From: a virus
Taxonomy: Duplodnaviria > Caudoviricetes
Length of the DNA stretch: 52,727 bases
Reading direction: 5' to 3' (one strand)
Virus record (IMG/VR): IMGVR_UViG_3300032050_000188
Location: 1-52,727 of that record
Shown here: piece after piece, positions 26,968 through 52,727 of the stretch
Position numbering within the stretch: the stretch's first letter is position 1
Layout: every line of letters starts with the position of its first letter
The notes under the pieces: model-generated
What the model was told of the DNA's origin: nothing
What the model saw: only the letters and a program-made list of their open reading frames with translations
Database searches by the model: none
Made by a program: the position numbers and the translations under genes

Positions 26968-29900
26968 TCCCACGCCTTCAAACCGAGTACGAAGTAGAAG
27001 ACGCAGCGGACGAAGACGAACTGCGTCGGATTGTGCGCGGCGCTGCGCCTGCGCCTAGCCCCGCTCCGGCTCCGGCCCCTGCTGCCTCCACCACAGACTG
27101 GATGTCAAACACCCCCACGGGTTGGGGCGGGTTTACTGGCGAGGAAAAGATACAGTATTTCAACCAACATGGGATAACGCCTGAGCAACTAGCGCCTTAC
27201 GCCACCCCTGAAGAGATCCAGTATTTCTATGACCACATGGGGTACACGGTAGGGAAGCCTACTACTGCCCCTGCTCCAACTGTTGCTCCTGCTCCTCCTT
27301 TAACGCCATTTGACGTTTTTAAGCAGGATCTGTTTACAACAGAAATGTTGCCAACTGGAGCATCTCCGGAAACTGGAGCAGATCAGTTTCAGGCTGGCGC
27401 AAGAAGTTACCAACTAGGAAATCAAACCGTTGTCCCTGACGATCAAGGTGGCTACGTTGTTAACACGCCGACTGCGCAGGATGGCATTTACAAAGCCGAA
27501 CGCTTTGATGCTTCTGGAAAGAAAATTGGCGAGTTCATCAATGACGCTCGCAATACGGACCTGCAAGATTTAGCTCAGTTAGCCACATTTGCCCTTGGCG
27601 TTGGCCCATTAGGTGGGATGCTCGGCAGCACTGTTGCTGGAGCACTAGGTATACCTGTAGCCACTGCAACATCAGCAGGGCTGACTGCCGCCCAACTAGC
27701 GGCGCTTGGAACTACAGTTGGCAGCGCAGGACTTGGTATCCTGCAGGGCCAAGACCCACTGGATGTCCTTCAAAACGCAATCAGGGCAGGTGCTACAGCG
27801 TTCCTGCCCAGCCAAGTCTCGTCTTTCATCCCATCGACAGGCACAGCAGCGCTTGATGCTGCGCTTAAGACTGCCACTGAAGCAGGTGTACGTACTGCTG
27901 TAAACGGCGGGGATGTTGAGAGCGCAGTTATTGGTTCGTTGGTTAACAGCGGTGTCGGAGCTGCTACGGGGGCGACAGGACTCCCACCAGAACTTGTTAA
28001 CGCGGCAATTAATGTTGCCAAGTCTGGCGGCGATCCGCAGAAAATATTTAACGCGGTAGTTAGCGCTGGCCCTGCAATTCAAGGTCTTCAGAACTACTAC
28101 AGCAAGACAGACACAGGTGACGAAACTGCCCGCCTTACGGCCCGGTATGGTACTGCATTTGATAATTTTAATTCATATCTAAAACAAGTAGCTGCAAACG
28201 CAGAGCCGTTTGAACCAACGCAATTTGCATCCCCAGAACAAGCAAGTATCTTTGACAATTTTGTAGAACAGTTTGCAAATGGGGCCGGAAGAGCGCCTGA
28301 CGCTGACGAAACTACGTTGTTATTGGCACTAGCCAACCCTGATTTAGCCAACAAGTTAAATACAACAGTTACAGATACTGGCACATCTGCATTACATGAA
28401 CTATTAAATAAAAAACCGCAAGCAGCATCATTGCTACAAACAATACTAGAAAGAACCCCAGGACAGGGTGATTTATTAGAGTTGTTAAAAAAACCAGTTC
28501 AATCTGGTGTGGCACAAACACCAGCATTGCCGCAGGCGGCAATGACAGCAAGAGATTTATTTAGGGGTGCCGGAAGTGAATACACCAATGTTTACCCTGG
28601 TGCTTTATTAACTTCAGGTACTGGTGGTCAAGGATGGTTTGCGGGTCCAGGAGCAGCTACGTTTGCGTCAGAAATGATGGGTCTAATGTCAGATCCAACC
28701 CTGACAGCAGAAGAGCGCGCATTTTTTACTGACCAGCTACGCCAAGCAGCGATGAAACCGGAGCTTGTCAATCAAGTACCGGGGTTGGCAACGTATAACC
28801 CATACATTTCGGATACGTCTAGGACACGAGAAGGTACATCTGCTACAAGCGCAGGCGGGGGGAAAGATGGCGGAGGTAAAGATAATACTGGTAGCGACGG
28901 GGGTGTAACCACACTGCCACCTTTTGTTACCGCTGGCACAAGAATTGCAAACCCTGCTGCCATTGATGCATTAATTGACGTTATTGGGGGAAGCTCTGTA
29001 GATCCTATTACCGGGTCTGTAATCCCAGATGGCGGGAATCAATTAGATACAGCCACAATAGTTGGGCAAGATGAAGATGGAAACCCTATAACCACAGGTG
29101 ATATTTTGGGGGGTTCCGCGTCTATACCTACGTCAAGCATTAGGACTGCCGAAAATGTAACAACCCCCGATTTTGATTTGGACACAAGCCAAATAATTAA
29201 CGACTACGTAAACGACATTTTGGGTGGGCAAGCTGTTTCAGATATTCCTTCAGTTACTCCCTCAGGTACGCCAGCGTTAGATGCTTACGAAGTGTTGTGG
29301 ACTAATCCAGTCACCGGGGAAAATGTAACAAAAGAAGACCTTGGAGTAACTGCTACGGTAAGCCCCTCAGTCACGCCATCGGTTGCCCCTGCCGCTGCAC
29401 CCGCCACGGGGACAATTTTGTCAACGGACCCCACGCAGGGCACGGCGCTGGTGGTTGATCCCAGCGGGAACACCAAAGTTGTTGATGTCTCACCCGACTC
29501 CAAGCCCGGAGATACCGTAAATATTGGCGCTGCACCAACGCCTGCACCAACGCCTGCGGCTCCTGCTCCTGCTCCCGCGTTGAATCTTTCCACGCCGATT
29601 GCCACTGATCCCGCAACTGGCGAAGTGCTTACGCTTGGCGATGTACTGCCTTCTCCGCCCCCTGCTCCAAGCCCCGCACCAAGCCCCGCACCAAGCCCTG
29701 CTCCTGCTACAACAACGGCATTGGTAACTGCGCCAGCACCTGCTCCGGCACCTAGCCCCGCTCCAAGTCCTGCTCCAAGCCCTGCTCCGGCACCCGCAGT
29801 TGACCTTACAACTCCTGTCGCAGTAGATCCAATAACAGGCGAGACGCTGACACTTGCGGATGTAACGCCTTCGACGCCAGCTCCGGCACCCGCAGAAGTA

Positions 29901-30962
29901 AAGACTGAAGTTGCTGCGCCAAGTCCTGCTCCTGCCGAAGCTCCCGCTCCTAGTCCAGCACCAGCGCCCTCAGAAGCACCTGCGCCCGCTCCAGCCCCCG
30001 CTAAAGTTACCGCTCCTGCTGAGGCACCGGCTCCAAGTCCTGCTTCAACGGAAGCGCCTGCACCAGCGCCGAGTACAACTGAGACCAAGACGGAAGCCCC
30101 GGCACCTGCCGCGCCATCTCCCGCGCCTGCCCCAACGACGACTGAAACCAAAACAGAAGCACCCGCTCCAGCCCCCACAACCACGGAAACCAAAACGGAA
30201 GCGCCGGCTCCCGCCCCGGCAACTACGGAAACTAGGACTGAGGCACCTGCGCCTGCTCCGAGCACAACGGAAACAAAGACCGAGGCACCTGCTCCGGCAC
30301 CTACGACCACTGAAATTAAGACTGAGGCACCCGCTCCTGCTCCGACGACAACTGAGACTAAAACAGAGGCTCCTGCACCTGCCCCAAGCACAACGGAAAC
30401 TAAGACCGAAGCACCTGCTCCGGCACCTAGTCCTGCACCGGCTCCTGCAGAAGTAACTACCGCAGCGCCGGCTCCTGCACCAGCACCCGCGCCAACAACT
30501 CAAGCTCCTACACCTGCGCCTCCTCCGGCTCAACCGCCTGCACAACCTCCAGCGCAGCCACCGTCTCAGCCCCCCGCACAACCTCCCGCGACCACACCCC
30601 CTGGAGAGGACGTTCTGCCGCCTGTGACAGAGGAAGAGTTGCGCGAGATTGTTTCCGGGCCTCCACCGGCACCGCCTGCGCCAACACCTGCGCCCCCAGC
30701 ACCAACGCCTGCGCCTCCCGCACCTACGCCGGCACCTCCTGCGCCGACAGTTAAACCTCCAGCGGTTAAACCAACTAGCCCTGCGCCGTCTCCTGCGGCA
30801 CAATTGGCTATGCCTAAGATGACGCCAGAGTTGGCTAACTTCATTCAAGAACTGATGCAGACGGACGAAGCAGATCTGCTCCAGTTGACCACCGCGCTCA
30901 AAGCAGAGCGTGAAGAAAAACGTGAAGGCTTGCGTGGCAAGCTGAAATCTAGAAAGGCTTGA
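26964..30962 (+). CDS. Large Pro/Ala/Thr-rich putative internal virion protein
   Basis: 1332 aa; hydrophobic Gly/Ala helices; long PAPAP and TTETKTEAPAPA repeats. Confidence 0.55.
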   Translation: MIPRLQTEYEVEDAADEDELRRIVRGAAPAPSPAPAPAPAASTTDWMSNTPTGWGGFTGEEKIQYFNQHGITPEQLAPYATPEEIQYFYDHMGYTVGKPTTAPAPTVAPAPPLTPFDVFKQDLFTTEMLPTGASPETGADQFQAGARSYQLGNQTVVPDDQGGYVVNTPTAQDGIYKAERFDASGKKIGEFINDARNTDLQDLAQLATFALGVGPLGGMLGSTVAGALGIPVATATSAGLTAAQLAALGTTVGSAGLGILQGQDPLDVLQNAIRAGATAFLPSQVSSFIPSTGTAALDAALKTATEAGVRTAVNGGDVESAVIGSLVNSGVGAATGATGLPPELVNAAINVAKSGGDPQKIFNAVVSAGPAIQGLQNYYSKTDTGDETARLTARYGTAFDNFNSYLKQVAANAEPFEPTQFASPEQASIFDNFVEQFANGAGRAPDADETTLLLALANPDLANKLNTTVTDTGTSALHELLNKKPQAASLLQTILERTPGQGDLLELLKKPVQSGVAQTPALPQAAMTARDLFRGAGSEYTNVYPGALLTSGTGGQGWFAGPGAATFASEMMGLMSDPTLTAEERAFFTDQLRQAAMKPELVNQVPGLATYNPYISDTSRTREGTSATSAGGGKDGGGKDNTGSDGGVTTLPPFVTAGTRIANPAAIDALIDVIGGSSVDPITGSVIPDGGNQLDTATIVGQDEDGNPITTGDILGGSASIPTSSIRTAENVTTPDFDLDTSQIINDYVNDILGGQAVSDIPSVTPSGTPALDAYEVLWTNPVTGENVTKEDLGVTATVSPSVTPSVAPAAAPATGTILSTDPTQGTALVVDPSGNTKVVDVSPDSKPGDTVNIGAAPTPAPTPAAPAPAPALNLSTPIATDPATGEVLTLGDVLPSPPPAPSPAPSPAPSPAPATTTALVTAPAPAPAPSPAPSPAPSPAPAPAVDLTTPVAVDPITGETLTLADVTPSTPAPAPAEVKTEVAAPSPAPAEAPAPSPAPAPSEAPAPAPAPAKVTAPAEAPAPSPASTEAPAPAPSTTETKTEAPAPAAPSPAPAPTTTETKTEAPAPAPTTTETKTEAPAPAPATTETRTEAPAPAPSTTETKTEAPAPAPTTTEIKTEAPAPAPTTTETKTEAPAPAPSTTETKTEAPAPAPSPAPAPAEVTTAAPAPAPAPAPTTQAPTPAPPPAQPPAQPPAQPPSQPPAQPPATTPPGEDVLPPVTEEELREIVSGPPPAPPAPTPAPPAPTPAPPAPTPAPPAPTVKPPAVKPTSPAPSPAAQLAMPKMTPELANFIQELMQTDEADLLQLTTALKAEREEKREGLRGKLKSRKA
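29655..30795 (+). repeat. Coding tandem repeats (APSP, APAPxTTETKTE, PPAQ, PPAPT units)
   Basis: About eight 12-aa APAPxTTETKTE units at ~30055-30420, flanked by shorter Pro-rich repeats. Confidence 0.9.
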
Positions 30963-41405: not shown

Positions 41406-41645
41406 TTATGGGGTACACCAGACCCGAATGCCAAGCACTCCGTTCTCGATCCGCTCCGCCCAGACCAGCGGGTAACGGTTCTTGTAGTGCCGATCCACAG
41501 CAGCGAAGGTCTCCTTGTGCTTCAAGCTGGGGATAAAGAAGCTCTGCAAAGGTGCCAGCGCGTCGGGGATATCAAACTCCGCCCCCTTGATCCGCAGAGG
41601 GCGTCTGTAGTAGTTAAGCCTCTTCTGCAATAGGGATGAAGTCAT
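41406..41645 (-). CDS. Small conserved phage protein
   Basis: SFFIP.L and ENGVLGIRVW motifs; start uncertain. Confidence 0.6.
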   Translation of the reverse strand: MTSSLLQKRLNYYRRPLRIKGAEFDIPDALAPLQSFFIPSLKHKETFAAVDRHYKNRYPLVWAERIENGVLGIRVWCTP

Positions 41646-44418
41646 CGGCTTGGAAACCTAACACCGCCTCTGCGTCTCTAATGCAGTAGGCATTCACCGC
41701 TCCAAAGTCTGCGTCCCACCCGGAGCCCATACGCTTCTTGACGACTTCCAGTTTCTGCTTGGTCTCTGCTTCAAACAAGTCAGGCAACTCACGCGTGTTG
41801 ATGTACTGATCCACGCACCACCGGTTGAAGTCCTTCTGCACGATGAACAGGATTTTAGTATCAGGTTCATACCGAATGACAAGCTGACCTTTGGGCTTCA
41901 CATAGGCTTGGTTCTGCAAGCCGTTAGCCCGTGAGGTGGCGTCCACGATCAGCATGTTGTTGACGTTCTTGTTGACGAACGATGCAATGGATTCCGATGC
42001 CTTGGTAGCTTGGAGCAGCATCTGAGCCCCAGCATTGGATACGAGCCTGACCATCTTACGGGCGATTCTCACGATGTTGTAAGAGACCAACCCAAGATTC
42101 TGCAGGACAACTCCTGCTGTAACCGCGCAGATCACTGCGTTTAGTCGATACCGTTCTGTCTGGGTCCAGTTACCCCTTGAGTAGATAGCGGCCTGCGTCT
42201 CCAACCACATGGCCTGCACCTCTTCTAAATGCGGGACAACGTACTTGAGAAACGCATCCCCGGCGTGGCCGTAATTGTCTGCCAGTGCGTTGAAGACCCT
42301 CTGTATTTCCAGAACATCTTTAGGAACGGGTGTCTGTAGGTAGATCTCGATGGTCCGCGCCATCTCACCCTGCGGGTCTACCTTGATCTTGCTCAGTTGG
42401 TCTTCTAGGTTGGCGTTTGTAGACCAGATCGAGGTGCCCTTCCAAGTGATGTCGTTCGTGCGCTCCGCGTTTCTACCCGCCTCCATGCGGTCTCGGGCAC
42501 GCCCCTGCGTGCTGCCGTAGAGCAGGGCGGAGATCTCTTCCGGCGAGGCGTTGGTCATCTCGTCCAAGCACATGGCGATGCCGTTCCACACCCCCATCCG
42601 GTGCACCTTGGTCATGTGCGTGTCCTGCGCATCCTTCATCATGGCCTTGGGGTCACCGAAGATCGAGTTGACCATCCGCAGGATAGTGGTCTTGCCGGTG
42701 CCGCTGCGCTTGGAGTAGTAGTTGATCACCGCCCCGTTCTCGGGGGACAGCGCCATGAGCACACTGCCGAAGCCAGACAGCAGACCGAAGGCGTGCAGGT
42801 CGAACCGAGGGTCGTTGTAAGCGTTGGCGATCTCCTTCCACTTCTCCAAGGAGCCCCGTAGCGCAAACCAGGGGACGTACTTCTCAACTGACTTACCCAC
42901 CGGGGAACTGACTACGCCATGTTTTGTGTACTCACGATCACCCACAATGAACGTGCCGTTCTTAGTCCATCCAAAACGAGTATGCACATCATCCGCCTTC
43001 ATTCTGAGTTGAAGTTCTTGAATCGACTTGCCCACATAAGTCTGCAACTTGACAAGCTGCGCCTGGGCGAAGACTGCTACACCTTCTGCACTGAGCTTGT
43101 CCCGGAACTTGTCCAATGCACCGATGTCTTTTTGCGGAACCATGAAGTCCCGCACTGCATCATTAGGCAGGTGGTGGCGGAGCCAAACCACATCCCCTAA
43201 CTCCGACTCTCGCATCCGTTTGTATACGTAGAGGTCATAGGGGTAGACTACCTCGGACTTCATCTCATCGCCAACTTTAACGTCGGTATAGACCCCGCCG
43301 TTCGCTCCACGGTAGTAGGGCCACGGGTATGCAGGAATCTCAAACTTCTTCTCTGCGATAATAATCTCAGTAGGCCCCGGTGGCGCAGCTTTGATCGCAG
43401 CACCGAGTTGGATCGGGGACGTTATCTTGCCACTATGCGGACAACCCGCGCACAGTGACGCAGTCTCCATGCCCTGAAAAGTCTCACAGGTATACGGACC
43501 CTTCGTGCCAATAGCCTTTCGCTCGGTTTCATCCGCCGAGTAATTCGGGTGCTTCTCCGACACCGCATGGATGGCCCAGTCACGGTCTTCGCAGTGTTGT
43601 GCAACCGAAAGTACGCCCCGCCAGACAGGCTCTGGTAGCGTATCAGATTGGTCAATCGCGTTTTGTATTTGCGCACAGCCATCTCCCTTGACTGATTTAG
43701 TCCAAATTATTTCGAACTTGCTAATTCGGTTAGGGTCACCACCTGCCAAACTTTTTGTCAGGCTCGATGGTGAAGTCTTTGAGATAGCCTTTGCCTTGTC
43801 AAAAGCAAAGATCTCTGGTGCCCCAATAGCCTTCTTCAGTTCTTCAAAGTCGTATTGGGTGATTGGGGTGAGCAGCGTAACGGTGCTACCGTTCTTGGAG
43901 TTGATCGTCTCAGGTACACGCAGGACGCGAACTGCATCCGCAGTGCAGACAGGATCAGCTTTGAAGTCGTGCTCTTTGCAGAGCGCTTTGAGTCCGCTGG
44001 CTACCTCGATCCATGAGTGGACAGGTACAGCGTCGAAGAAAATCCAGTGGGCGTGTAGGCCGTTGCCCGAATCCACGATGGTGGGACGAGGCAGGTTTGT
44101 TGTCTTACAAAACTCTCTCAGTGCTTGTGCACCCTCGCCCTTGTCAGCGTAGGGCTTGTTGGGACCGCAGTCCACATCAATGTACAGTTCTCTCTTGGCT
44201 ACAGCGTTTTCCGATGTTGCGGTGTCTCCTGCCCCAAACCCAGCAGTGACGTAATAAACATCGTATCCATTATCAACATAAGTCTGTATCTCATCGGCCA
44301 TATCTTGGACTGACGAGAAGAACCGATTGAATGCGCTGCCTGTTGCCTTCTTGATTATTCTGAGAGAGTACCGCGTTCCTTCTGGGAGAATGCCTTCTAG
44401 GAATCTAAGTTGAGACAT
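41614..44418 (-). CDS. Primase-helicase (AEP/RepB-like primase, DUF927, P-loop helicase)
   Basis: YIDVD, VDSGNGLHAHW, RVLRVP, CETF...C..CPH, FGW, Walker A SGTGKTT, Walker B CLDE. Confidence 0.85.
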   Translation of the reverse strand: MSQLRFLEGILPEGTRYSLRIIKKATGSAFNRFFSSVQDMADEIQTYVDNGYDVYYVTAGFGAGDTATSENAVAKRELYIDVDCGPNKPYADKGEGAQALREFCKTTNLPRPTIVDSGNGLHAHWIFFDAVPVHSWIEVASGLKALCKEHDFKADPVCTADAVRVLRVPETINSKNGSTVTLLTPITQYDFEELKKAIGAPEIFAFDKAKAISKTSPSSLTKSLAGGDPNRISKFEIIWTKSVKGDGCAQIQNAIDQSDTLPEPVWRGVLSVAQHCEDRDWAIHAVSEKHPNYSADETERKAIGTKGPYTCETFQGMETASLCAGCPHSGKITSPIQLGAAIKAAPPGPTEIIIAEKKFEIPAYPWPYYRGANGGVYTDVKVGDEMKSEVVYPYDLYVYKRMRESELGDVVWLRHHLPNDAVRDFMVPQKDIGALDKFRDKLSAEGVAVFAQAQLVKLQTYVGKSIQELQLRMKADDVHTRFGWTKNGTFIVGDREYTKHGVVSSPVGKSVEKYVPWFALRGSLEKWKEIANAYNDPRFDLHAFGLLSGFGSVLMALSPENGAVINYYSKRSGTGKTTILRMVNSIFGDPKAMMKDAQDTHMTKVHRMGVWNGIAMCLDEMTNASPEEISALLYGSTQGRARDRMEAGRNAERTNDITWKGTSIWSTNANLEDQLSKIKVDPQGEMARTIEIYLQTPVPKDVLEIQRVFNALADNYGHAGDAFLKYVVPHLEEVQAMWLETQAAIYSRGNWTQTERYRLNAVICAVTAGVVLQNLGLVSYNIVRIARKMVRLVSNAGAQMLLQATKASESIASFVNKNVNNMLIVDATSRANGLQNQAYVKPKGQLVIRYEPDTKILFIVQKDFNRWCVDQYINTRELPDLFEAETKQKLEVVKKRMGSGWDADFGAVNAYCIRDAEAVLGFQADDFIPIAEEA

Positions 44419-44474
44419 GGTGACGAAGGGGTAACCACAGACGCAGGGTCGTGGTTCGGGTGGCGGGGGGCTGG

Positions 44475-44708
44475 TCAGGCCGGAGGAAGAAGGCGACGAT
44501 AGTACGTCAGCACCTTGTCGCGCAAGTGCTTTCCGACCTCGTGTTTACCCGAGAACCACCGATAGACAGCGGCCTTGGAAACGTCGAGGTCAGTGCACAC
44601 TTGCGCGACAGGATGCTTGAGGTATATGCACAGGCGTCCGAGTTGGACGCCCAGCATCGCCGGATCTGCATCCGCGTTCAGCCGAACGATCTTCGCTGAG
44701 TAGGTCAT
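44475..44708 (-). CDS. HTH (Cro/XRE-like) regulator
   Basis: PVAQVCTDLDVSKAAVYRWFSG. Confidence 0.7.
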   Translation of the reverse strand: MTYSAKIVRLNADADPAMLGVQLGRLCIYLKHPVAQVCTDLDVSKAAVYRWFSGKHEVGKHLRDKVLTYYRRLLPPA

Positions 44709-44714
44709 GGTGAC

Positions 44715-44736
44715 AAAGAGGGGGCCGTAGCCCCCC
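44715..44736 (-). terminator. Terminator / attenuator hairpin after the SSB-like gene
   Basis: GGGGGC-TACG-GCCCCC then TCTTT on the minus strand. Confidence 0.6.
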
Positions 44737-44743
44737 GCCTTAC

Positions 44744-45688
44744 TCAGTCGTCAGCGTCATCACCCCAGTCGGACAGGATCGACTTCACGCTCACAGGTGC
44801 TGCCGCTTTGGCTTCCCGCACCACGGGCTCCTCGACCACCTCAACGGCGGCGGGTTCAGCCTTCTTGGGCTTCTCCACCTTGAACTCAGCCTTGGCAGCG
44901 GGCGCTGCGGCTTTGGGCTGGATGAACACAGGCTGCTCCACAGGAGCGGGCGCAGGGGCAGCGGCTTCCGGCGTACCGTCAATTTCCGCAACGGTCATCG
45001 TGACTGCTTCGATGGCGGCAGGCTCATCCATGCGGGCCTTGACCATCTCCCACTCGTGCTCTTCCAGCGGGCGCACGGCGCTGAACACCAGCTTCATGTT
45101 GGCAGAAGTGTCGAAGCGCATCTCGGTCACCACTGCGTTGACTTCGATACCGTGACCGCCAAGGAAGCGTGCGTACTGCTGCAAGCCCATCTTGCGACCT
45201 TCGCCCTGGGCAAAGAGGCTCGACGCGTTGATGCTCATCGCGTAGATGTCACCCTGGATGTCGGAAGCCAGCAGCACTGCCAGACGACGGCTGTAACGGC
45301 AGGCCTTGGAGTCACCCTGCCCAGAGCCCTTGATGTCTTGCGGGCAACCCGTGCAGGACTTGTGCTGCGGGTTCTTGACGTTGGCGTGGGGCTTGGTGCT
45401 GTCATCAGACCAGCAGAGGGGGCGACCCTTCACACCCTTCTCATACTGAGAGCCGTAGAACGTACGGGCGTTGTTGTCCGACGCACGGACGACGATGATG
45501 TTCATGGCGCGGTCTTCGTTCACCGCGACCGACTTGCCACCCACCAGCATCGTGAAGACGTTGTTGTCAATACTGATGCGCTTGCTGCTGCCACCGCCCA
45601 TCAGGGACTTGGTTAGCGAACTCAACTCACCCCTGCGCAGATGTGCAGGCAGTGCGTTACCGGATTGGAAAAGGGTCAGATCAGACAT
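44744..45688 (-). CDS. Putative ssDNA-binding / annealing protein
   Basis: P.CWS.D, C..CPQ..KGSG...KACRY.RRLAV, Pro/Ala linker, acidic tail WGDDADD. Confidence 0.6.
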   Translation of the reverse strand: MSDLTLFQSGNALPAHLRRGELSSLTKSLMGGGSSKRISIDNNVFTMLVGGKSVAVNEDRAMNIIVVRASDNNARTFYGSQYEKGVKGRPLCWSDDSTKPHANVKNPQHKSCTGCPQDIKGSGQGDSKACRYSRRLAVLLASDIQGDIYAMSINASSLFAQGEGRKMGLQQYARFLGGHGIEVNAVVTEMRFDTSANMKLVFSAVRPLEEHEWEMVKARMDEPAAIEAVTMTVAEIDGTPEAAAPAPAPVEQPVFIQPKAAAPAAKAEFKVEKPKKAEPAAVEVVEEPVVREAKAAAPVSVKSILSDWGDDADD

Positions 45689-46089
45689 TAGGATCTCCTA
45701 ACAGTTACTGTGTACTTGGATTCGACGTTCATACCCTTGGGCATTTGGTCGGGGTTTGCTTTGAGGTATTCCCCCATCGCACGTTGCGCAATGCGTCTCT
45801 CTAGCAGTTCAAGCGCGTTGTTCTCCTTGATGAAGTTGTGCATAGCCTCCCAGTCGGAGGTCCAGTAGCGTGTATCTACGCCACGAATTACCACGCCAAC
45901 ACCGGGGATGCTGACGTTGCCACCTGCACGCTTGCAGGCTTCTAGCAGGAAGTTCTCAACTACCCGCATCTGCTCTTTGATCTCTTTGTCTTTCGTCTCG
46001 TACTCAGCACTCAACACACTACGCGCATCGCGCATCTTGATGTAGGCCTTGACGAGCTTTTCAGTTGGAGGAAGTTCTTGGTCTTCCAT
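45688..46089 (-). CDS. Conserved phage protein of the replication module
   Basis: LVKAYIKMRD coiled coil, YWTSDW...FI, LLERRIAQ; strong SD CAGGAG. Confidence 0.7.
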   Translation of the reverse strand: MEDQELPPTEKLVKAYIKMRDARSVLSAEYETKDKEIKEQMRVVENFLLEACKRAGGNVSIPGVGVVIRGVDTRYWTSDWEAMHNFIKENNALELLERRIAQRAMGEYLKANPDQMPKGMNVESKYTVTVRRS

Positions 46090-46118
46090 GTTGGTCTCCT
46101 GATGAAGTGAGGGGATAA

Positions 46119-46147
46119 AGTTTACATCGCAACTTTTTAGGCGTCAA
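46119..46147 (-). promoter_or_regulatory. sigma70 promoter for the 46089-SSB-HTH-primase genes
   Basis: TTGACG-17 nt-TAAACT; inverted repeat AAAGTT-N8-AACTTT at 46117-46136. Confidence 0.7.
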
Positions 46148-47678
46148 GCTCCTCCCGATAAAGATTGAGCAGGGTGTCCATGTCTTCGGTCTTGAGGTCC
46201 AGCGCGTCATAGAGCTTGCGCTCCACGTTGCAGCCACACAACCTCACGACGAGACAGGGGTTCTTCTGACCTGCCCGGTGCACGCGGGCGTTGGCTTGGT
46301 GCCAAATTTCGTTGGAGGTCACAGGACCCCACCAGACCACGGTGTTCGCTGCGTGTAGGGTCACGCCGTGCGATGCAGCCGCAGGCTGGATGAGCAGGAT
46401 GCGGGGCTCGGGCTGGGTCTGGAAGTTCTTGAAGATCTCCGTGCGGTTGTTGACAGAGACCCCGCCGTGGATCACATCCACTGCGTACCCATCCTTGCGG
46501 AGCCGGTCGCGCAGCACCTCGATGGCGTGCCTGAACGGAACGAAGACCAGCACCTTGTGGGTGCTCTCCTCGATGGCTTCCACCAGCACGTTGTACCGGT
46601 GCGTGATGTCGAACTCCACCGTGTTGCCGTCGTCTGTGTACACCGCGCCACTGGCTACCTGCAATAGCTTGTTCAGGTTCGTCGCAGCATTAACGGAAGT
46701 GACGGTCTCCCCTGCCGCTGCCATGATGAACTGATCCTTCAGCATCTTGTAATACTTCGCCTGCTGCGGGGTCAACGACACTTCACGCGTGGTGTACAGC
46801 AGTTCAGGCAGGTCCAGGCACTCATCCTTGGTGAAGCGTATCGCGGGTTGAAGCACTCTGTTGACGACCTCCGCTGCGTTCTTCTTCGCCGCCCATTTGA
46901 ACTGGGTGACCTTGTACATCACCTGATCTCTGAAGGAGTAGAAGTGCGGAGGTACGGAGGAAGGATTCAACATACGGGCTATGCCGTATGCGTCTATCGG
47001 AGACTGCGAAGCGGGGGTGCCGGTCGCCATCCATAACCACGTTTCTGGAGTGATGAGTGAGTTGATTGATTTCCATCTTTTAGTTGTAGCAGTCTTCACT
47101 GCATTAGCTTCGTCAATGATGACGAGGTCGAACCCCCCGGCCTTGAGTTCAGGCAGGACTGTCTCTACACCGTCGAAGTTGATGATGACGAACTCAGCCC
47201 CGGAGTTGATGACCTTGACCCGCTTGTCCCTGCTACCGTGTGCTACGTCCACAGTACGGTGCATGATGGTCTTGAACAGGTCCGCCTGCCATGCCGAGTT
47301 CATGATCGACAGCGGGCAGATGACCAGCACGCGTTTGACGTAGCCCTTGTCCAGCAGGTAGTCAGCAGCCCACGCGAAGCTGGCTGTCTTGCCCGTGCCT
47401 GGGTCGTTGAAGCAGAACGCCCTGCGGTGCAGGGTCATGAACGCTGCGGTCTCCCGTTGGTGGTCGAACGGCTTGAACAGCCCCGGCCATTTGTAGCGCC
47501 CCTCGATGGGTGAGGGGACGTTCTTGACCCCGAGGTTCTTCAGGACCTGAGCTTCCTCAAGCCCCCACCGCACCAGCACCTGCCCATCGTCCAGACGCCT
47601 GCTCTTGGGTATGGTGTTGAGCACCCGCTCGGGGTGCCGCAGTTTGAGCAGGAGCGCTTTACTGTCGATGATTTGCAT
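46137..47678 (-). CDS. SNF2-family helicase
   Basis: PGTGKT, VICPLS, IIDEA, ATGTP, HGVTL, QANARVHRAGQ. Confidence 0.9.
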   Translation of the reverse strand: MQIIDSKALLLKLRHPERVLNTIPKSRRLDDGQVLVRWGLEEAQVLKNLGVKNVPSPIEGRYKWPGLFKPFDHQRETAAFMTLHRRAFCFNDPGTGKTASFAWAADYLLDKGYVKRVLVICPLSIMNSAWQADLFKTIMHRTVDVAHGSRDKRVKVINSGAEFVIINFDGVETVLPELKAGGFDLVIIDEANAVKTATTKRWKSINSLITPETWLWMATGTPASQSPIDAYGIARMLNPSSVPPHFYSFRDQVMYKVTQFKWAAKKNAAEVVNRVLQPAIRFTKDECLDLPELLYTTREVSLTPQQAKYYKMLKDQFIMAAAGETVTSVNAATNLNKLLQVASGAVYTDDGNTVEFDITHRYNVLVEAIEESTHKVLVFVPFRHAIEVLRDRLRKDGYAVDVIHGGVSVNNRTEIFKNFQTQPEPRILLIQPAAASHGVTLHAANTVVWWGPVTSNEIWHQANARVHRAGQKNPCLVVRLCGCNVERKLYDALDLKTEDMDTLLNLYREELDA

Positions 47679-47859
47679 TTGTTTTGTAGTAGGTCATGAC
47701 AGCGCCGACAGCATCATGTACGGTAACGCCGCACAGTTGTGCTACGCTTGCGTACACATTTAGTGTTACTTCTAAAGCCTCTCGATTGTCCAAATCTTGG
47801 TCTTGAAGCATTTGAAGCATGAACCCGGCGATTTCTTTAAGTTCAGTTTGTGTAGCCAT
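47659..47859 (-). CDS. Hypothetical protein
   Basis: 66 aa, fills the gap, SD GAGG. Confidence 0.55.
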   Translation of the reverse strand: MATQTELKEIAGFMLQMLQDQDLDNREALEVTLNVYASVAQLCGVTVHDAVGAVMTYYKTNANHRQ

Positions 47860-47861
47860 GA

Positions 47862-48395
47862 TTACCTCAGTGGGAACTTAGCTTCTTCCTGCATCTTCAG
47901 CAGACGCAGGGCTTGGGTCTTGGCATCGTCCAGCGCATGATGTCCGGTGCCTACTCGCTCGATCTTGGTCTTCATGAACATCGCAGCGATGGTGCGGTAG
48001 CAGCGATCATTCCAGTAGTGCCAAGGCGTATCCATCTTCAGCGCCCGGTAGGCAGCGGCCACCAGCGTGTTGTCAAAGTTCGCTCCGTTACCCCAGACCA
48101 ACACCGTGTCAATTGGCGGCATCCACATGGTGAACTTAGTCAGCGCGACATTCAGGCTGAACTCACCCTTGAACGCAGCGGCGCGAGCCTCAGCAGACTG
48201 CTTACCCCACCACTCCAACGTGCTCTTCTGTGCACGAAGTCCTGCTGCTTTGCAGGACTCAGGGTCAATGGTGACGTAGAATTCTTCACCCAACCCGTTC
48301 TCATCGAACTTCACAGCACCGATACTGAGGATGGTATCCCCCGGCCTAGTGCCTAGTGTCTCAATGTCCATCATTACGTTCTTCATTACCGACAT
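47862..48395 (-). CDS. DEDDh 3'-5' exonuclease
   Basis: MDIETLG, WGNGANFD, RCYRT, HHALDDA; start ATG 48395 with SD CAGGAG. Confidence 0.85.
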   Translation of the reverse strand: MSVMKNVMMDIETLGTRPGDTILSIGAVKFDENGLGEEFYVTIDPESCKAAGLRAQKSTLEWWGKQSAEARAAAFKGEFSLNVALTKFTMWMPPIDTVLVWGNGANFDNTLVAAAYRALKMDTPWHYWNDRCYRTIAAMFMKTKIERVGTGHHALDDAKTQALRLLKMQEEAKFPLR

Positions 48396-48475
48396 TTTTA
48401 TCTCCTGATGCAGATAGCAGAACGGCCCGATAGGGGGAACCCATCGAGCCAAGACCCTCGGTCTAGCGCCGAGGA

Positions 48476-48505
48476 AACGAAAGCATAGCCCCAGCGGGGC
48501 TATGC
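48476..48505 (-). terminator. Rho-independent terminator
   Basis: GCATAGCCCC-GCT-GGGGCTATGC then TTTCGTTT. Confidence 0.7.
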
Positions 48506-48506
48506 G

Positions 48507-48776
48507 TCAACGCCCGCCTGAGCGGGGACCTTTGAAATTTTTCGCGCTGTTGGCGCTGAAGCTCTTGAGCCGCACGTTTCCGGGCTTGCTCTTCCCACCA
48601 TCCTTGATGGGGGTCACATGATCGAGGGCTTTGCCCTTTCGAGAATCCTTACCGTGTTCCTTGTCCCAGGCACGGCGTGCACGCTGCCGCTCGGACTGCT
48701 TGGCTCTGCCTCCGTTGGCGAGGAAGTCAGCGTACTCCTTCTTGTGGTCTCGGTCGGACATATCCTTGTAGGGCAT
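48507..48776 (-). CDS. Small HNH-like protein
   Basis: R..ARR...GK.LDHVTPI.DGG....NVRL....N. Confidence 0.6.
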   Translation of the reverse strand: MPYKDMSDRDHKKEYADFLANGGRAKQSERQRARRAWDKEHGKDSRKGKALDHVTPIKDGGKSKPGNVRLKSFSANSAKNFKGPRSGGR

Positions 48777-48813
48777 GGCTCTTCTCCAAAATCAAGTTCC
48801 AGTTGAACCCAGT

Positions 48814-49497
48814 TCATCCGTTGGCTCCGTTGTGTGGGCAGCTTGTTACCACGCAGTGTTTCCTGCACAGACCTGACGGGTTGGGGTTCCAGACGCCAGA
48901 CTTGTACGCCCCTTCCAGCCTGCCGATGTCCTGCATCCACTGCCGCCAGTAGTTCTTCTCCTGCGTCCGGTCGTAGTCCGCCCGCTTGAAGTCGTTCGCC
49001 ACGACGAAGAGCAACCCTGCCCTGACCCTGCGGATCGCCGGGAAGTGCTTGAAGACCATGAGCGCCATCAGTTCCAACTGCGCCGTGTCGGCGTACTTGG
49101 CAGACTTGCCAGTCTTGTAGTCCACGATCCGGGCGATGCCTGTCTCCTCGTTGACGATGAGCAGGTCAGCCACACCCCGGCACCATACATCTTTCGCGTC
49201 GAAGGCACAAGCCTCTAGCTGCTGCGTCAGGCCCATCTTGTACTCACACAGCTTGGTCCCCTCGATGGACCGCAGGGTGTCGAGGTGCGACTTGACGTAG
49301 CTGAACGCCTCAGGCAGGGGGGTGCCATCGCGCACATAGTGCTCAGCCGCTTCGTGGAAACTGCTCCCGTACAGCGTTGCTTCTGTGAACGGCGGCTCCG
49401 TGAAGTTCCTGTAGACCTTGACCTCAGCAAACTGCTTCGGGCATGTCTTGAACTTCTTCAGGGACGAATACGACCAAGCACCGGGCAGACTCATCAC
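48814..49497 (-). CDS. PD-(D/E)xK (Cas4/RecB-like) nuclease
   Basis: WSYSSL..F..CP, G..FH, GVADL, VDYKTGK, QLELMAL, C..HC....C. Confidence 0.85.
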   Translation of the reverse strand: MMSLPGAWSYSSLKKFKTCPKQFAEVKVYRNFTEPPFTEATLYGSSFHEAAEHYVRDGTPLPEAFSYVKSHLDTLRSIEGTKLCEYKMGLTQQLEACAFDAKDVWCRGVADLLIVNEETGIARIVDYKTGKSAKYADTAQLELMALMVFKHFPAIRRVRAGLLFVVANDFKRADYDRTQEKNYWRQWMQDIGRLEGAYKSGVWNPNPSGLCRKHCVVTSCPHNGANG

Positions 49498-49664
49498 TGC
49501 TCCTTCGTAGCCCGAATAGCGTTGTACGTCAGCTTGGCTTCAGCCATCGCAACCAGTGCGTGTTCAAGCGCGGCATCTATGTCGTTTTGCAACATTGCCT
49601 GATGTAGTTCCTTCAGTGCCTTCTCCGCCATCATGCACGGGTAGGCGTAATCAACAATCCCCAT
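49494..49664 (-). CDS. 56-aa helical protein (not in ORF track)
   Basis: MGIVDYAYPCMMAEKALKELHQAML...; SD AGGAAGGA; fills the polymerase-nuclease gap. Confidence 0.65.
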   Translation of the reverse strand: MGIVDYAYPCMMAEKALKELHQAMLQNDIDAALEHALVAMAEAKLTYNAIRATKEQ

Positions 49665-51525
49665 ATGTCCTTCCTATTCCACTTTCACAGTTGATAGGGC
49701 ACCCCTGTGCCCACTTGGGAACCCAGCGCATACATTCTTCAACGTATGCCTGAGCTTGTTCAGCTTCTTCCTCACGGGCAATGGCAGCTACAGCATCATG
49801 CACAGTCAGGACCACATGCAGCTTCTTGGAGATCTTCAGTAGCTGCTGCATCACAACGATGCGGGCCAGCGCTTGCACCACGTTCTCAACCAGCTTGCCA
49901 CCGTAGATGTCCACCAGCCCAGTCTCATCCTTGTACTGCCACGCCTCCATCGCCATGCCGTTCTTGTTCTTCACCCCACGGTGCAGTTGCGGGTAGCTGA
50001 TGTACAGCCCACTGGGCAGCTTGATCCCTTTGCGCCCTTCGACCAGCACGACACCTTCACGACCGAACCACATGGTCTTGTCACTGTGCATGGTCTCAAT
50101 AGCTGCCTCACCTTCACGCCACAGCCTTGTGATGGCAGGGACTGACTGCCGGTATGTGTCAATGATCTGCTTGCATGCGTCCAGTTCCAAGTCCATGTTC
50201 ATTTCGGACGCCTTCAGTGTCACCTGAAGTTTCACTGCACCGGTCTGGTATCCGCAACCAAGCACCACAGTTTTACCTACGAACCGTTCACGCTTATCGG
50301 CTTTCGTTACCTCTCTGCCGAATATCTTTCCAGACATCTTGCAGTACACATCAACACCGTTGGCGAAGTCTTCTACAAGATCTTCCTGCCCCGCCAGCCA
50401 CGCAAGCATCCGCGCCTCGATGTTGGACGAGTCGCAGTCAATGATCACGTAGCCCGGAGGTGCCTCGATACAGCGCTTGAGCTTGTTAGCCTGCGCCCCA
50501 CGAGCCGGGAGGTTTTGCAGGTTTATACCATCAGTGCCGCCCAAGCGGTGGGTTCTCGCAGCGGAATATCGCAGGGGCACCGGGAACAGCGGGCTTCGCC
50601 CCGCCATGTCAATGAACCGTTGCGTGCGGGTCTCCTCCAAGGTGCTCTTGACTCCCATCCGCGCAGCCACCACAGCCTGCACCCGCTCGTCGGGGTGGTC
50701 CAGCAGGGCCTTCATAGCCGGGTCAGTCTTGGCGAAAGCGAACGCTTGCTTGCCCGTGGTCGGGCTGATCTTCATCGGCGGAACAACCCCAAAACTCTCC
50801 AGCACCAAAGCGAACTTCGGGTTGGACATGAGGTCTTCCTTGGCGATGCCCGCGTTGGACAGCAGTTCCTCCTTGCGGCGGATCACATCTGCCAGATGCT
50901 CCTCCAACTGCGCCTTGTTGAGGTGTAGGACAGGCTCGGTGTACATCCTGATGAGCTTGTCGATGAGCTTGAGTTCCTGCGTAGGGTAGGGGTCCCGATG
51001 ATCGAACGTCTCCGGGTTATACCAACCGTTGGACATAAGGAAGAACAACTCATGGCATAGCTCTACGTCATGCAGGCAGTAGTCAGCGTACTTGGCGAAC
51101 TCCTCCGGAGTGAAGTCAGCCCTGCGTTTGCCCATCGCGTTCTGCACCTCAGTGCCCTTGTCCTCCAGCCCGTAACGCTTGGCAAGCAAAGCCAGCGAGT
51201 TGCCCTTCATCCCGAACATGGCACGGGCCATAGACAGGGTGTCCAGCCACGCAGCAGGCTTCACCCCGAACCGCCACGCGAGAATGGCGGCATCGAACAA
51301 TGTGTTGTGCGCCAGCACCGCGTACTTGCCCCACTCGATGGCATCCAGCCGGTACTGCACCTCTGCTTCGGTGCCAGTGATGATCTCCTTCTTTCCGTCC
51401 GGCCAGCGTATGCCCAGCATGATGACCTCGAAACGTGGGTCCCGAACGTAGGCTTCCATCGTCATCTTCGATAATGAAAACTCCTTGTCGTAGTACGTTT
51501 CGAAGTCTACCGTTAGGATGTCCAC
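49651..51525 (-). CDS. polA: DNA polymerase, family A
   Basis: Exonuclease DFET, AHN..FD, YC..D; NLQNLP; motif A DSSNIEAR; motif B RFVGKTVVLGCGY; motif C VHD. Confidence 0.92.
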   Translation of the reverse strand: MDILTVDFETYYDKEFSLSKMTMEAYVRDPRFEVIMLGIRWPDGKKEIITGTEAEVQYRLDAIEWGKYAVLAHNTLFDAAILAWRFGVKPAAWLDTLSMARAMFGMKGNSLALLAKRYGLEDKGTEVQNAMGKRRADFTPEEFAKYADYCLHDVELCHELFFLMSNGWYNPETFDHRDPYPTQELKLIDKLIRMYTEPVLHLNKAQLEEHLADVIRRKEELLSNAGIAKEDLMSNPKFALVLESFGVVPPMKISPTTGKQAFAFAKTDPAMKALLDHPDERVQAVVAARMGVKSTLEETRTQRFIDMAGRSPLFPVPLRYSAARTHRLGGTDGINLQNLPARGAQANKLKRCIEAPPGYVIIDCDSSNIEARMLAWLAGQEDLVEDFANGVDVYCKMSGKIFGREVTKADKRERFVGKTVVLGCGYQTGAVKLQVTLKASEMNMDLELDACKQIIDTYRQSVPAITRLWREGEAAIETMHSDKTMWFGREGVVLVEGRKGIKLPSGLYISYPQLHRGVKNKNGMAMEAWQYKDETGLVDIYGGKLVENVVQALARIVVMQQLLKISKKLHVVLTVHDAVAAIAREEEAEQAQAYVEECMRWVPKWAQGCPINCESGIGRTYGDC

Positions 51526-51815
51526 AATGACCTTTCATGGAACCACTCTTCAAGCAGTTCCGTTGTGTCTTCACGCACTACCATAGCCGAGCCCCCGGCT
51601 TTGTGGATCTCCGCCATCTCGCGCTCTTGCAGGGCGGTGGGCTTGTTAAAGCCTGCCTTGCATTCTACACCCAAGAACATGCCTCGATAGCACACGATGA
51701 TGTCTGGTATACCCGCACGACCGTAGCCGTTCTGCGCAGGAAAGAAGTAGTAGCCCTTGTACTTCTTGATGATGTCCACGCAGCGGGACTTAACTTTCGA
51801 TTCGGGGGTGGCCAT
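51513..51815 (-). CDS. VRR-NUC nuclease
   Basis: TPE.KV, G..GIPDII, GVECK, PTALQ, AGG.A.VV. Confidence 0.85.
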   Translation of the reverse strand: MATPESKVKSRCVDIIKKYKGYYFFPAQNGYGRAGIPDIIVCYRGMFLGVECKAGFNKPTALQEREMAEIHKAGGSAMVVREDTTELLEEWFHERSLWTS

Positions 51816-52035
51816 CGTTGAACTCCTCTACTTCAATCAGTTTCTGGATGTAATGCGCTGCTTTACGTAGGTCTTGCACGCCACCCTTGTGCTTCCAGCG
51901 GGACAGGTACTTGACGGCATTACCGTCGAGGTAGCCGAGTTCCCAGTCGAGGATTACGTTCCACGTTTCGTACTTAAATTTCTTGTAGTGTGTGCCGCCA
52001 TGCTGCACATCATCAGCGTTTTGTGTTGGTTGCAT
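51790..52035 (-). CDS. DUF3310 protein (T7 gp1.7-like nucleotide kinase)
   Basis: GGTHY, GNAVKYLSR..KGG..DL.KA.HY. Confidence 0.8.
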   Translation of the reverse strand: MQPTQNADDVQHGGTHYKKFKYETWNVILDWELGYLDGNAVKYLSRWKHKGGVQDLRKAAHYIQKLIEVEEFNDGHPRIES

Positions 52036-52065
52036 TTTGGGGGTTGGTTGATTGGTTTTGGGGTT

Positions 52066-52210
52066 GAGGGGGAGAAACAGATTCCTAGCCCCCTCGGTCT
52101 AGGTTGGGGAGAGCATCACGCGCTACAAACTCCAGCGGGCACGCGTGATGCGTAAGAAAGGCTTCACATCTGTTGGGCTAGAACCAGTCCTACGGTATGC
52201 ACTGCCCGCT
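52066..52210 (-). ncRNA. Candidate multi-pseudoknot structured RNA
   Basis: At least five complementary segment pairs of 5-10 bp, several crossing; see findings. Confidence 0.55.
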
Positions 52211-52225
52211 AAATTAGTGCTACGC

Positions 52226-52441
52226 CTACGGCGCAGGCTTCTTGGTACTTGGATTTATGTGGGGCAGCATTGACAATGCAGCGTCCTTCTCGGTAGGAGT
52301 AGAGGAAGGGCCAGGGACGATCCGCTCCTCGGTCCAAAATTTGTGCAGGTTTGCACATTGGTAGCGACGGCGGCGCGATCCATCTTTGCGCATCCGCGTA
52401 TCCAGAACTTCCGTCCATGTTCCGCACTCGGGGCATTTCAT
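52226..52441 (-). CDS. Zinc-ribbon protein (NrdR N-terminal / Ogr-like)
   Basis: MKCPECG...V.DTR......RRRYQC.N.H.F.T.E; ATGA-coupled start. Confidence 0.7.
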   Translation of the reverse strand: MKCPECGTWTEVLDTRMRKDGSRRRRYQCANLHKFWTEERIVPGPSSTPTEKDAALSMLPHINPSTKKPAP

Positions 52442-52623
52442 TCCTCCTTGTTCTCCGTAAATGATGGGCACTTCTCATCCTCCATGATCCACGGCCCCAT
52501 CCACCACTGGCGGTCGGACTTCGGGTTCACGGGTGAGTTGGCTACGTTGCGTTTACATGCCTTGCAGTATTCAAAGCATGGGTTACCCGCACAGCGGGCA
52601 AAGTCTTGGGCTTCGTATCTCAT
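52438..52623 (-). CDS. Small Cys-rich protein
   Basis: DFARC.G..C..C..C.R...CPSF; ATGA overlaps at both ends. Confidence 0.6.
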   Translation of the reverse strand: MRYEAQDFARCAGNPCFEYCKACKRNVANSPVNPKSDRQWWMGPWIMEDEKCPSFTENKEE

Positions 52624-52727
52624 CTCGACCTCACGCAACGGTACTCGTTAGTCTTGATACTCAATTGACGAGCGGCGTTTTCACACATTTCTTGAGCACT
52701 GATTTTGCGCTCCAAGACCTCTTGATG
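52620..52727 (-). CDS. 3' end of a CDS that starts outside the window
   Basis: Open frame ...HQEVLERKISAQEMCENAARQLSIKTNEYRCVRSR* ending in an ATGA overlap. Confidence 0.5.
   Translation of the reverse strand, partial: HQEVLERKISAQEMCENAARQLSIKTNEYRCVRSR

Follow-up and report, generated by a model that had tools for sequence, protein, structure and literature searches.

The minus strand of IMG/VR virus record IMGVR_UViG_3300032050_000188 (Caudoviricetes; 52,727 bp, completeness estimate 84%), which in its full length is the window analyzed here, very probably encodes a conserved, pseudoknotted RNA of the architecture described below at positions 52210-52066. The element spans about 145-160 nt, from the stop codon of a small upstream open reading frame (ORF) to 30 nt short of the start of a DUF3310 gene, and its fold combines two pseudoknots with a long-range helix between them. 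Comparative analysis and searches against known families make it a well-supported conclusion, at the level of sequence, that this is a new structured-RNA family in uncultured freshwater-type phages.

Seven helices (Pa, Pc, Pc2, Pb, K, Pd and Pe) make up the fold, and all supported helices are mutually compatible, giving two H-type pseudoknots and one loop-loop helix. Pseudoknot A is built from Pa and Pb, with the Pc/Pc2 hairpin inserted in loop 1. The Pa 5' arm AGCGGGCA (52203-52210, minus strand, as are all arms below), whose first two bases are the last two of the upstream UAG stop codon, pairs with the 3' arm UGCCCGCU (52134-52141) and crosses Pb, a 10-bp stem between GCAUCACGCG (52142-52151), which adjoins the Pa 3' arm without a linker, and CGCGUGAUGC (52113-52122), placed by the repeat search and the pair counts. 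Loop 3 of this pseudoknot (52123-52133) is 11 nt long here and about 10-14 nt in homologues, as judged by eye from the alignment introduced below (A7). In the inserted hairpin, the Pc arms GUAGGA (52188-52193) and UCUUAC (52152-52157, from RNAalifold and pair counts) enclose Pc2, where GGUUC (52181-52185) pairs with GAAGCC (52160-52165) around one bulged base, the G at 52162. Pseudoknot B consists of Pd, formed by CCUAG (52099-52103) and CUAGG (52084-52088), and Pe, formed by GAGGGGG (52089-52095) and CCCCCUC (52066-52072), the latter being the 3' end of the conserved element; Pd crosses Pe, and its 3' arm is contiguous with the Pe 5' arm. Both pseudoknots have zero bases between the 5' arm of the second stem (S2) and the 3' arm of the first (S1), and the crossing order S1-S2-S1'-S2' is kept in homologues for Pa/Pb and for Pd/Pe, which places them in the H-type class. 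The two are joined by K, a 7-bp kissing helix between AACAGAU in the Pc2 apical loop (52168-52174) and AUCUGUU inside the 11-nt loop 3 of pseudoknot B (52076-52082).

All complementary pairs named in the earlier note, which had described a dense multi-pseudoknot RNA here, are present in the sequence. The inverted-repeat search returned 52113-22/52142-51 (10 nt, 100%), 52134-41/52203-10 (8 nt) and three repeats of 7 nt each (52066-72/52089-95, 52076-82/52168-74 and 52085-91/52175-81); CCTAG/CTAGG (5 nt) is under the length limit of that search and is visible in the sequence. The minus strand folds at -58.9 kcal/mol with z = -2.57, a value as low being reached by 1 of 200 shuffles, whereas the plus strand gives z = +0.95. 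Because the flanking genes lie on the minus strand, that strand is also the more stably folding one, and the G-U pairs fall on the sense strand, the element is read as an RNA transcribed in sense within the early replication operon of the phage.

Homologues were gathered from several sources. The nearest relative by family-A DNA polymerase (PolA), L002, has 85% PolA identity and a homologous spacer of about 77% identity. Searches for exact matches to patterns of the 3' pseudoknot and to the Pc2 loop led to 29 IMG/VR contigs, and a metagenome pattern scan to 21 contigs, 16 of them true members and 5 (L111, L124, L127, L129 and L130) dismissed as chance. L179 and L180 came from a scan that used the 5' domain of L097, which is divergent. 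The distinct homologues thus number 31, of which 29 are full-length and two are the extra L097-like ones. The only pattern match in representative prokaryote genomes, in a metagenome-assembled genome of Acidobacteriaceae, is a chance 24-mer within coding-looking sequence. The covariance model R1 finds one copy in the window (52066-52226, 157.6 bits) and no copy in 79 other PolA-relative loci (L003-L081).

The earlier note had proposed collecting homologues upstream of DUF3310 and looking for covariation; among the 31 distinct homologues, covariation supports five helices at the sequence level, namely Pc, Pc2, Pb, Pd and K, and these compensatory changes, with the minus-strand z-score, bear out a dense multi-pseudoknot fold. 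Alignment A7 holds 29 sequences, in which six helices were counted (43 pairs, 1240 cells). Pairing is kept in 97.2% of the cells, 15 of the 43 pairs show double-sided changes and G-U pairs occur at 13 of 43; none of 500 shuffles reaches the observed values, and sliding the partners by 1-3 columns leaves 37-56% paired. Pb is paired in 100% of its cells with double-sided changes at 8 of 10 pairs, and Pc has such changes at 5 of 6 pairs. In Pc2, pairing holds in 97.2% of cells, with covariation at the closing Y-R pair (C-G in 8 and U-A in 6 of 18). RNAalifold, which is independent of our model, predicts Pc, Pc2, Pb and Pe.

Pd and K were counted separately, K being left out of the covariance model and Pd, which is misaligned by MAFFT and by the model, being counted by anchored parsing. 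The third Pd pair is U-A in 13, C-G in 15 and U-G in 1 of the 29 sequences, with 0 non-pairs, and its partner position was either N in the search patterns or outside them. The first K pair is C-G in 23, A-U in 5 and U-A in 1, with 0 mismatches in 29 sequences; a second covarying K pair goes from A-U to G-U in L097 and to G-C in L179 and L180. Pa (98.7% of cells paired in 29 sequences) is nearly invariant and varies only in divergent members, its seventh pair changing from C-G to U-A in L094 and the whole helix being replaced by GGCGGC/GCCGCC in L097, L179 and L180. Pe is paired in 99.5% of cells and is almost invariant in sequence; it is backed by conservation alone, since an invariant sequence gives no covariation. 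In L097, L179 and L180 the 5' domain is unrelated in sequence and has the same architecture, and even there the sequence of the 3' pseudoknot is invariant.

Several features of the sample temper this structural picture. The search patterns drew on Pe (its 5' arm in part), the Pd 3' arm, the K 3' strand and the Pc2 loop, with covarying positions left free; the invariance of the 3' pseudoknot and of the Pc2 loop therefore arises partly by construction, because the members were gathered with exact patterns from there. In addition, A7 was fitted to the nested helices of R1, and its cell counts include inherited changes, since the sequences are closely related and the family is shallow.

Two other helices were considered and set aside. 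The alternative CTAGCCC/GGGCTAG (52085-91/52175-81), which the earlier note had put forward, exists as a complementarity in the window and is not maintained by the homologues: its central base varies between G, A and T against an invariant partner, without compensation. It is also the sole helix that would exclude others (Pe and Pd), so that the proposal of a switch based on mutually exclusive helices falls, there being no comparative sign of mutually exclusive conformations. A pairing of the 5' flank (GCGUAGCAC) with the loop of pseudoknot A, seen in the minimum-free-energy structure of the single sequence, is not kept in homologues (by eye) and is not predicted by RNAalifold. A scan of all column pairs returned no further helix, only scattered G-U-tolerant noise.

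Individual members carry additions in or beside the element. In L087, L089, L091, L092 and L002, a 23-nt insertion forming a 7-bp hairpin with a GCAA tetraloop sits between Pc2 and Pc, and the Pc2/Pc internal loop thus accepts an extra helix. In L082, L107 and L099, an extra GC hairpin (GGGGCC..GGGGGCCCC) lies just 3' of the element, bordered by a 12-nt direct repeat, CCCCTCACTAAT. One copy is found in L082 and in L107, and two in L099, a pattern suggesting that a short stretch was duplicated or inserted at the element's 3' edge. In L083, the element has the 8-nt string CACTAATT on both sides, next to Pa at the 5' end and next to Pe at the 3' end. Of this string, other members have only CACT in common, and it may be chance or the trace of a module insertion. 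On the plus strand of the window, 52036-52072, which includes the template of the leader, is rich in G-runs (TTTTGGGGGTTGG..TTTTGGGGTTGAGGGGG) and has a G-quadruplex-like look; the pattern is probably incidental, since the runs are not conserved in the sequences of other members.

Is the fold already known under another name? Rfam 15 (4227 models, among them riboswitches, ribozymes, Intron_gpI, Phage_pRNA and tmRNA) gives 0 matches anywhere in the window at gathering scores, and 0 at E<=10 in 51950-52300, in agreement with the earlier statement that the fold was not recognized. ARAGORN finds no tRNA or tmRNA gene in the window, and a DNA search against cultured phages returned only two short, weak matches. 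Among the papers listed as naming DUF3310, none has an RNA element as its topic, to judge from titles and abstract openings. RNAs of this kind have been catalogued from the same data source, the intergenic regions of IMG/VR: in the part of the paper available, Fremin et al. (2023; PMC10690425) list 8,495 structured-RNA candidates, including 879 that lie no more than 25 bp upstream of genes with known domains. That part, which does not include the candidate lists, mentions neither DUF3310 nor this fold, and the element may be among the candidates. The non-coding RNA arrays of UG27 reverse transcriptases, which have a similar unit size and which the available portion of a preprint describes as adjoining a reverse transcriptase in gut phages (bioRxiv 10.64898/2026.09.22.753630), were rejected because the element, in contrast to arrays, is single copy and no reverse-transcriptase family is matched among the 18 window ORFs scanned.

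Transcription across the region, which the earlier note had taken as a prerequisite, is consistent with contigs from RNA libraries of two studies that cover it. The X15 contig has 517 nt over 51917-52430 (38 differences, 5 gaps), the X16 contig 204 nt over 51945-52146 (2 differences, 1 gap), and a third RNA library, X19, holds a variant. These contigs show that the sequence is present in RNA libraries; strand, ends and level cannot be read from them, and some DNA may have been carried over, which lessens what they add to the case for an RNA; the uncovered parts in X16, X19 and X17 carry no evidential weight. Two RNA contigs end at 52146 and 52133, 13 nt apart, at a boundary between variable and conserved sequence.

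Of 29 distinct upstream sequences, 28 have the stop codon of the small upstream ORF (frame B, see below) abutting Pa, the UAG or UAA overlapping the initial one or two bases of the helix. L097 is the exception: there the stop codon of a DUF3310 gene abuts Pa instead, and in the L097 group it lies 2-3 nt before Pa. The gene downstream varies: DUF3310 in 29 of 36 contexts, VRR-NUC in 2, undetermined in 2, and in one context each a helix-turn-helix (HTH)-like 132-aa ORF, a 68-aa ORF and a 92-aa ORF.

The distribution among relatives is patchy. The upstream ORF is carried by 46 loci, 18 with and 28 without the element. The latter represent 20 distinct sequences, and in 12 of these the stop codon overlaps or touches the next start (NTGA or TGAATG); the remaining junctions have a spacer of about 66 nt (1), an unrelated A-rich hairpin region (6) or a partial match (1). 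When the 46 distinct rows of the upstream gene (27 with and 19 without the element) are placed on a tree, at least 5 changes of state are needed, 3 of them forced by well-supported branches. DUF3310, the 68-aa ORF and the HTH-like ORF each occur both with and without the element. Because the same genes are found in both states, the element behaves as a self-contained accessory module at the cistron boundary. Among the loci without it, a conserved run of seven A residues followed by the hairpin GAGCCCCGG-ACAC-CCAGGGCTC and two more hairpins stands after the frame-B stop in L138, L141, L146, L153, L155 and L156; the same arrangement follows DUF3310 in L133 and L135. Read on the opposite strand, that region looks like an intrinsic terminator for convergent genes.

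Between the element and the DUF3310 ATG (52035-52033) lies a 30-nt leader, A/C-rich, free of G and without a Shine-Dalgarno (SD) motif (52065-52036, minus strand). The count of 0 G agrees with the earlier description. By comparison, the corresponding 30 nt contain 3 G or more at every one of the 43 rough gene starts of the window, with an SD-like 4-mer in 30 and none in 13. In the family, 23 distinct leaders can be compared, and the counts are not phylogenetically independent: an SD-like 4-mer is absent in 16 and present in 7, 8 are without any G, and between 17 and 94 nt separate the last helix from the start codon. Several members have no C-rich leader. The leader types '...CAACAUC-AUG' and '...CCGAAAGCA...AUG' recur ahead of different genes.

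What could such an RNA do between two cistrons? We tentatively favor an element that acts in cis between the cistrons, takes the place of translational coupling and controls how ribosomes enter the block of replication genes, at a probability of about 0.35. Insertion of the element would break the ATGA-type coupling of the small ORF to the gene that follows. Since the upstream stop codon overlaps Pa or precedes it by no more than about 3 nt, a ribosome that terminates there would have to melt this helix. The highly stable, GC-rich fold would sequester the G-rich and C-rich segments of the spacer, leaving a short, unstructured, mostly G-poor and SD-less leader on which ribosomes could enter the replication block. 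Entry could occur by reinitiation or hand-over from the upstream terminating ribosome. Alternatively, ribosomes could load de novo, independently of an SD sequence. A factor recognizing the invariant 3' pseudoknot, the likely recognition surface, would possibly gate entry.

A number of observations weigh against a role in ribosome entry. Relatives express the same genes without the element, which is therefore not required for expression of the downstream gene, and it could be a self-contained module unrelated to the at least four different genes it precedes. The SD-less, G-free leaders may reflect passive avoidance of mispairing with the C-runs of the fold. The spacing of 17-94 nt together with the SD-like motif in 7 of 23 leaders disfavors a precise ribosome-positioning role; of the structured ribosome-entry element proposed earlier, positioning of the kind known from intergenic-region internal ribosome entry sites (IRES) is thus unlikely, and what stands is a looser tie to SD-independent initiation, suggested by the 16 of 23 leaders without an SD-like 4-mer. 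In our judgment, two pseudoknots and a long-range helix also exceed the needs of an insulator or operator and are more typical of aptamers, ribozymes or nuclease-resistant RNAs. RNAs this complex have often proved to be aptamers, ribozymes or mimics that bind ribosomes or enzymes. An elaborate fold that is independent of the downstream gene disfavors a mere insulator and keeps ribozyme, aptamer and decoy readings alive.

The element may represent a self-cleaving ribozyme or a ligand-binding RNA of a class not yet described. A new self-cleaving ribozyme class, or a dedicated RNase processing site, would cut the polycistronic early transcript after the upstream regulator gene and ahead of the replication genes, into halves of different stability. 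Complex pseudoknots, sense placement between cistrons and patchiness are common to several classes of small self-cleaving ribozymes in phage genomes, and the element has all of these, its fold being complex and pseudoknotted with near-invariant strands, its orientation sense between cistrons and its distribution among related phages that of an accessory. Nevertheless, known ribozyme families give no match down to E<=10, and the data do not point to a cleavage site; the contig ends at 52146 and 52133 lie where assembly graphs tend to break. A ribozyme or processing site appears unlikely.

Gain and loss like that of an accessory gene, and independence of the identity of the downstream gene, would equally suit an RNA released from the operon transcript and acting in trans, either as a decoy or sponge for a host or defense factor or a signaling nucleotide, or as a multimer assembled via the 7-nt loops, should K form between molecules. 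The 3' pseudoknot stays invariant despite the replaced 5' domain of L097, L179 and L180, and covariation cannot tell intramolecular from intermolecular loop pairing. On the other hand, neither promoter-like nor terminator-like sites accompany the element on the minus strand. Its orientation is invariably sense, and it stands straight between a stop and a start. The enrichment of SD-less leaders beside it points to a relationship in cis. A role in trans appears unlikely.

A further variant of the ribosome-entry theme is an element of bacterial viruses, a compact double pseudoknot, that captures the ribosome terminating at its 5' foot, or a free 30S subunit, and delivers it across about 150 nt of folded RNA to an SD-less, G-free landing pad. 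Such a relay would be functionally akin to shunting or to IRES-driven initiation, but in a phage of bacteria; it seems quite unlikely.

Aptamer-like complexity, with conserved junction and loop bases and a conserved structured domain, could also indicate a riboswitch, responding for instance to a nucleotide-related ligand and controlling translation or Rho-dependent termination ahead of the kinase-like and replication genes. DUF3310 follows in 29 of the 36 contexts, and the C-rich, G-free leader may resemble a Rho loading site. However, no expression platform is seen: the terminator scan of 50500-52727 found nothing on the minus strand, neither an SD nor an AUG is available for sequestration, and the sole mutually exclusive helix is not conserved. 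In addition, the downstream gene varies (other genes in 5 of 36 contexts), relatives lack the element and several members lack the C-rich leader. Ligand control thus ranks as highly unlikely.

Two stacked, GC-rich pseudoknots locked by a third helix could act between cistrons as a mechanical or nuclease roadblock, stabilizing the mRNA by shielding the upstream message from 3' exonucleases or the downstream one from 5'-end-dependent decay. Simple hairpins are, in our judgment, normally enough for this purpose, and the sequence invariance of Pe and of the loops would lack an explanation; the odds of such a role appear slim. A DNA-level signal (an origin, a recombination linker or a protein-binding site), for which the mosaic boundary adjoining replication genes might speak, or a chance set of inverted repeats, is extremely improbable in view of compensatory changes that keep pairing, G-U pairs on the sense strand only, strand-asymmetric folding and an architecture common to 31 distinct homologues.

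In the window, structural and terminase genes (the terminase large subunit is Terminase_6C) lie on the plus strand and the replication block on the minus strand, where the Zn-ribbon gene is followed by the 190-nt spacer (52225-52036), DUF3310, a VRR-NUC-like nuclease and the family-A DNA polymerase, and further on by a PD-(D/E)XK nuclease, an exonuclease, an SNF2 helicase and a DUF927 primase-helicase. The downstream gene (51790-52035, minus strand) matches DUF3310 with E 8.7e-10 (Pfam PF11753) and phrog_236 with E 4.2e-22. The earlier note had spoken of a nucleotide-kinase, nuclease and polymerase block; the VRR-NUC-like nuclease and PolA are found there, and 'nucleotide kinase' for DUF3310 rests on PHROG family names alone. 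Scans against Pfam and PHROGs detected no RNA-polymerase or reverse-transcriptase family among 18 window ORFs, and no single-stranded-DNA-binding protein family among the eleven ORFs of the minus-strand block (41614-52638), of which 52438-52638 and both frames of the upstream gene sit upstream of the element. A promoter scan found no promoter-like site, and a terminator scan one terminator-like site, on the plus strand only and fewer than in shuffles. The closest cultured PolA is 36% identical (Rhizobium phages).

The upstream small gene (52209-52478, minus strand) has two conserved frames. Frame A (52471-52226) is an NrdR/Ogr-like Zn ribbon (Pfam Zn_ribbon_NrdR, E 1.8e-7), and third-position variability tracks it across the first ~105 nt. 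Frame B (52478-52209), offset by -1 relative to frame A, has the conserved C-terminus WPFLYSY..VN.A..K..Y..A..G.A.x*; its UAG stop (52211-52209) lies at the foot of Pa, its homologues are 74-90 aa long and gene callers label it as hypothetical proteins of 74-90 aa. The -1 offset is kept in 31 of 31 distinct loci, and in relatives (loci L133-L178 examined) the frame-B stop overlaps the start of the next gene. The two frames may represent overlapping genes or non-canonical recoding. Canonical -1 frameshifting is not supported, the slippery heptamer X_XXY_YYZ being found in the frame-switch zone of 0 of 27 upstream genes. Elsewhere in the window, a 1332-aa ORF on the plus strand (26964-30962) has long imperfect tandem repeats at 29500-30800, with a 42-nt period in seven copies, and many Pro/Ala-rich repeats phased by 12 nt besides.

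If the fold is confirmed, the element would found a new family of complex RNAs that fits seven helices into about 160 nt, with two pseudoknots and a long-range loop-loop lock. Related phages with and without it ahead of the same genes provide natural controls, and its size suits chemical probing, crystallography, cryo-EM and, in standard laboratory hosts, reporter assays. The SD-less leaders, together with a start exactly at the stop codon, offer a testable tie to SD-independent or coupled initiation in bacteria.

Comparison with known systems brings out partial likenesses. The element resembles recoding pseudoknots in the order S1-L1-S2-S1'-L3-S2', in having no base between the S2 5' and S1 3' arms and in starting at a stop codon. 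Unlike frameshift or readthrough stimulators, it has no slippery heptamer 5-9 nt upstream, and the frames are closed before or at its first helix; past the frame-B stop, the next stop in the window comes within 14 codons (by eye). The strands of the group I intron core follow the order P3-[P4-P6]-P7-P3'-P8-P7', and pseudoknot A has a like topology, Pa-[Pc/Pc2 hairpin]-Pb-Pa'-loop-Pb'. Differently from a group I intron, it has no Intron_gpI match at E<=10, no P1/P10 and no P8 hairpin, and it interrupts no gene, its flanks being two separate, abutting ORFs in the relatives that lack it. The phi29-type pRNA, likewise a phage-encoded RNA of similar size with loop-loop pairing, depends on that base pairing for function. 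In contrast to it, the element has no Rfam match, belongs to a Terminase_6C phage and is embedded between cistrons of a replication operon.

The leader of T4 gene 32 is unstructured and G-poor from its pseudoknot to the start codon. As in the element, a phage H-type pseudoknot there lies 5' of an unstructured, G-poor leader before a gene of the DNA-replication set. In the available part of the text of Fremin et al. (PMC10690425), this pseudoknot functions in gp32 autoregulation and Rfam is without a model for it. The gene downstream of the element is DUF3310, VRR-NUC or another gene, and not the single-stranded-DNA-binding protein expected for an operator of the gene 32 type. Moreover, unlike the T4 leader, the element combines two pseudoknots with a long-range helix in about 160 nt and is optional among relatives.

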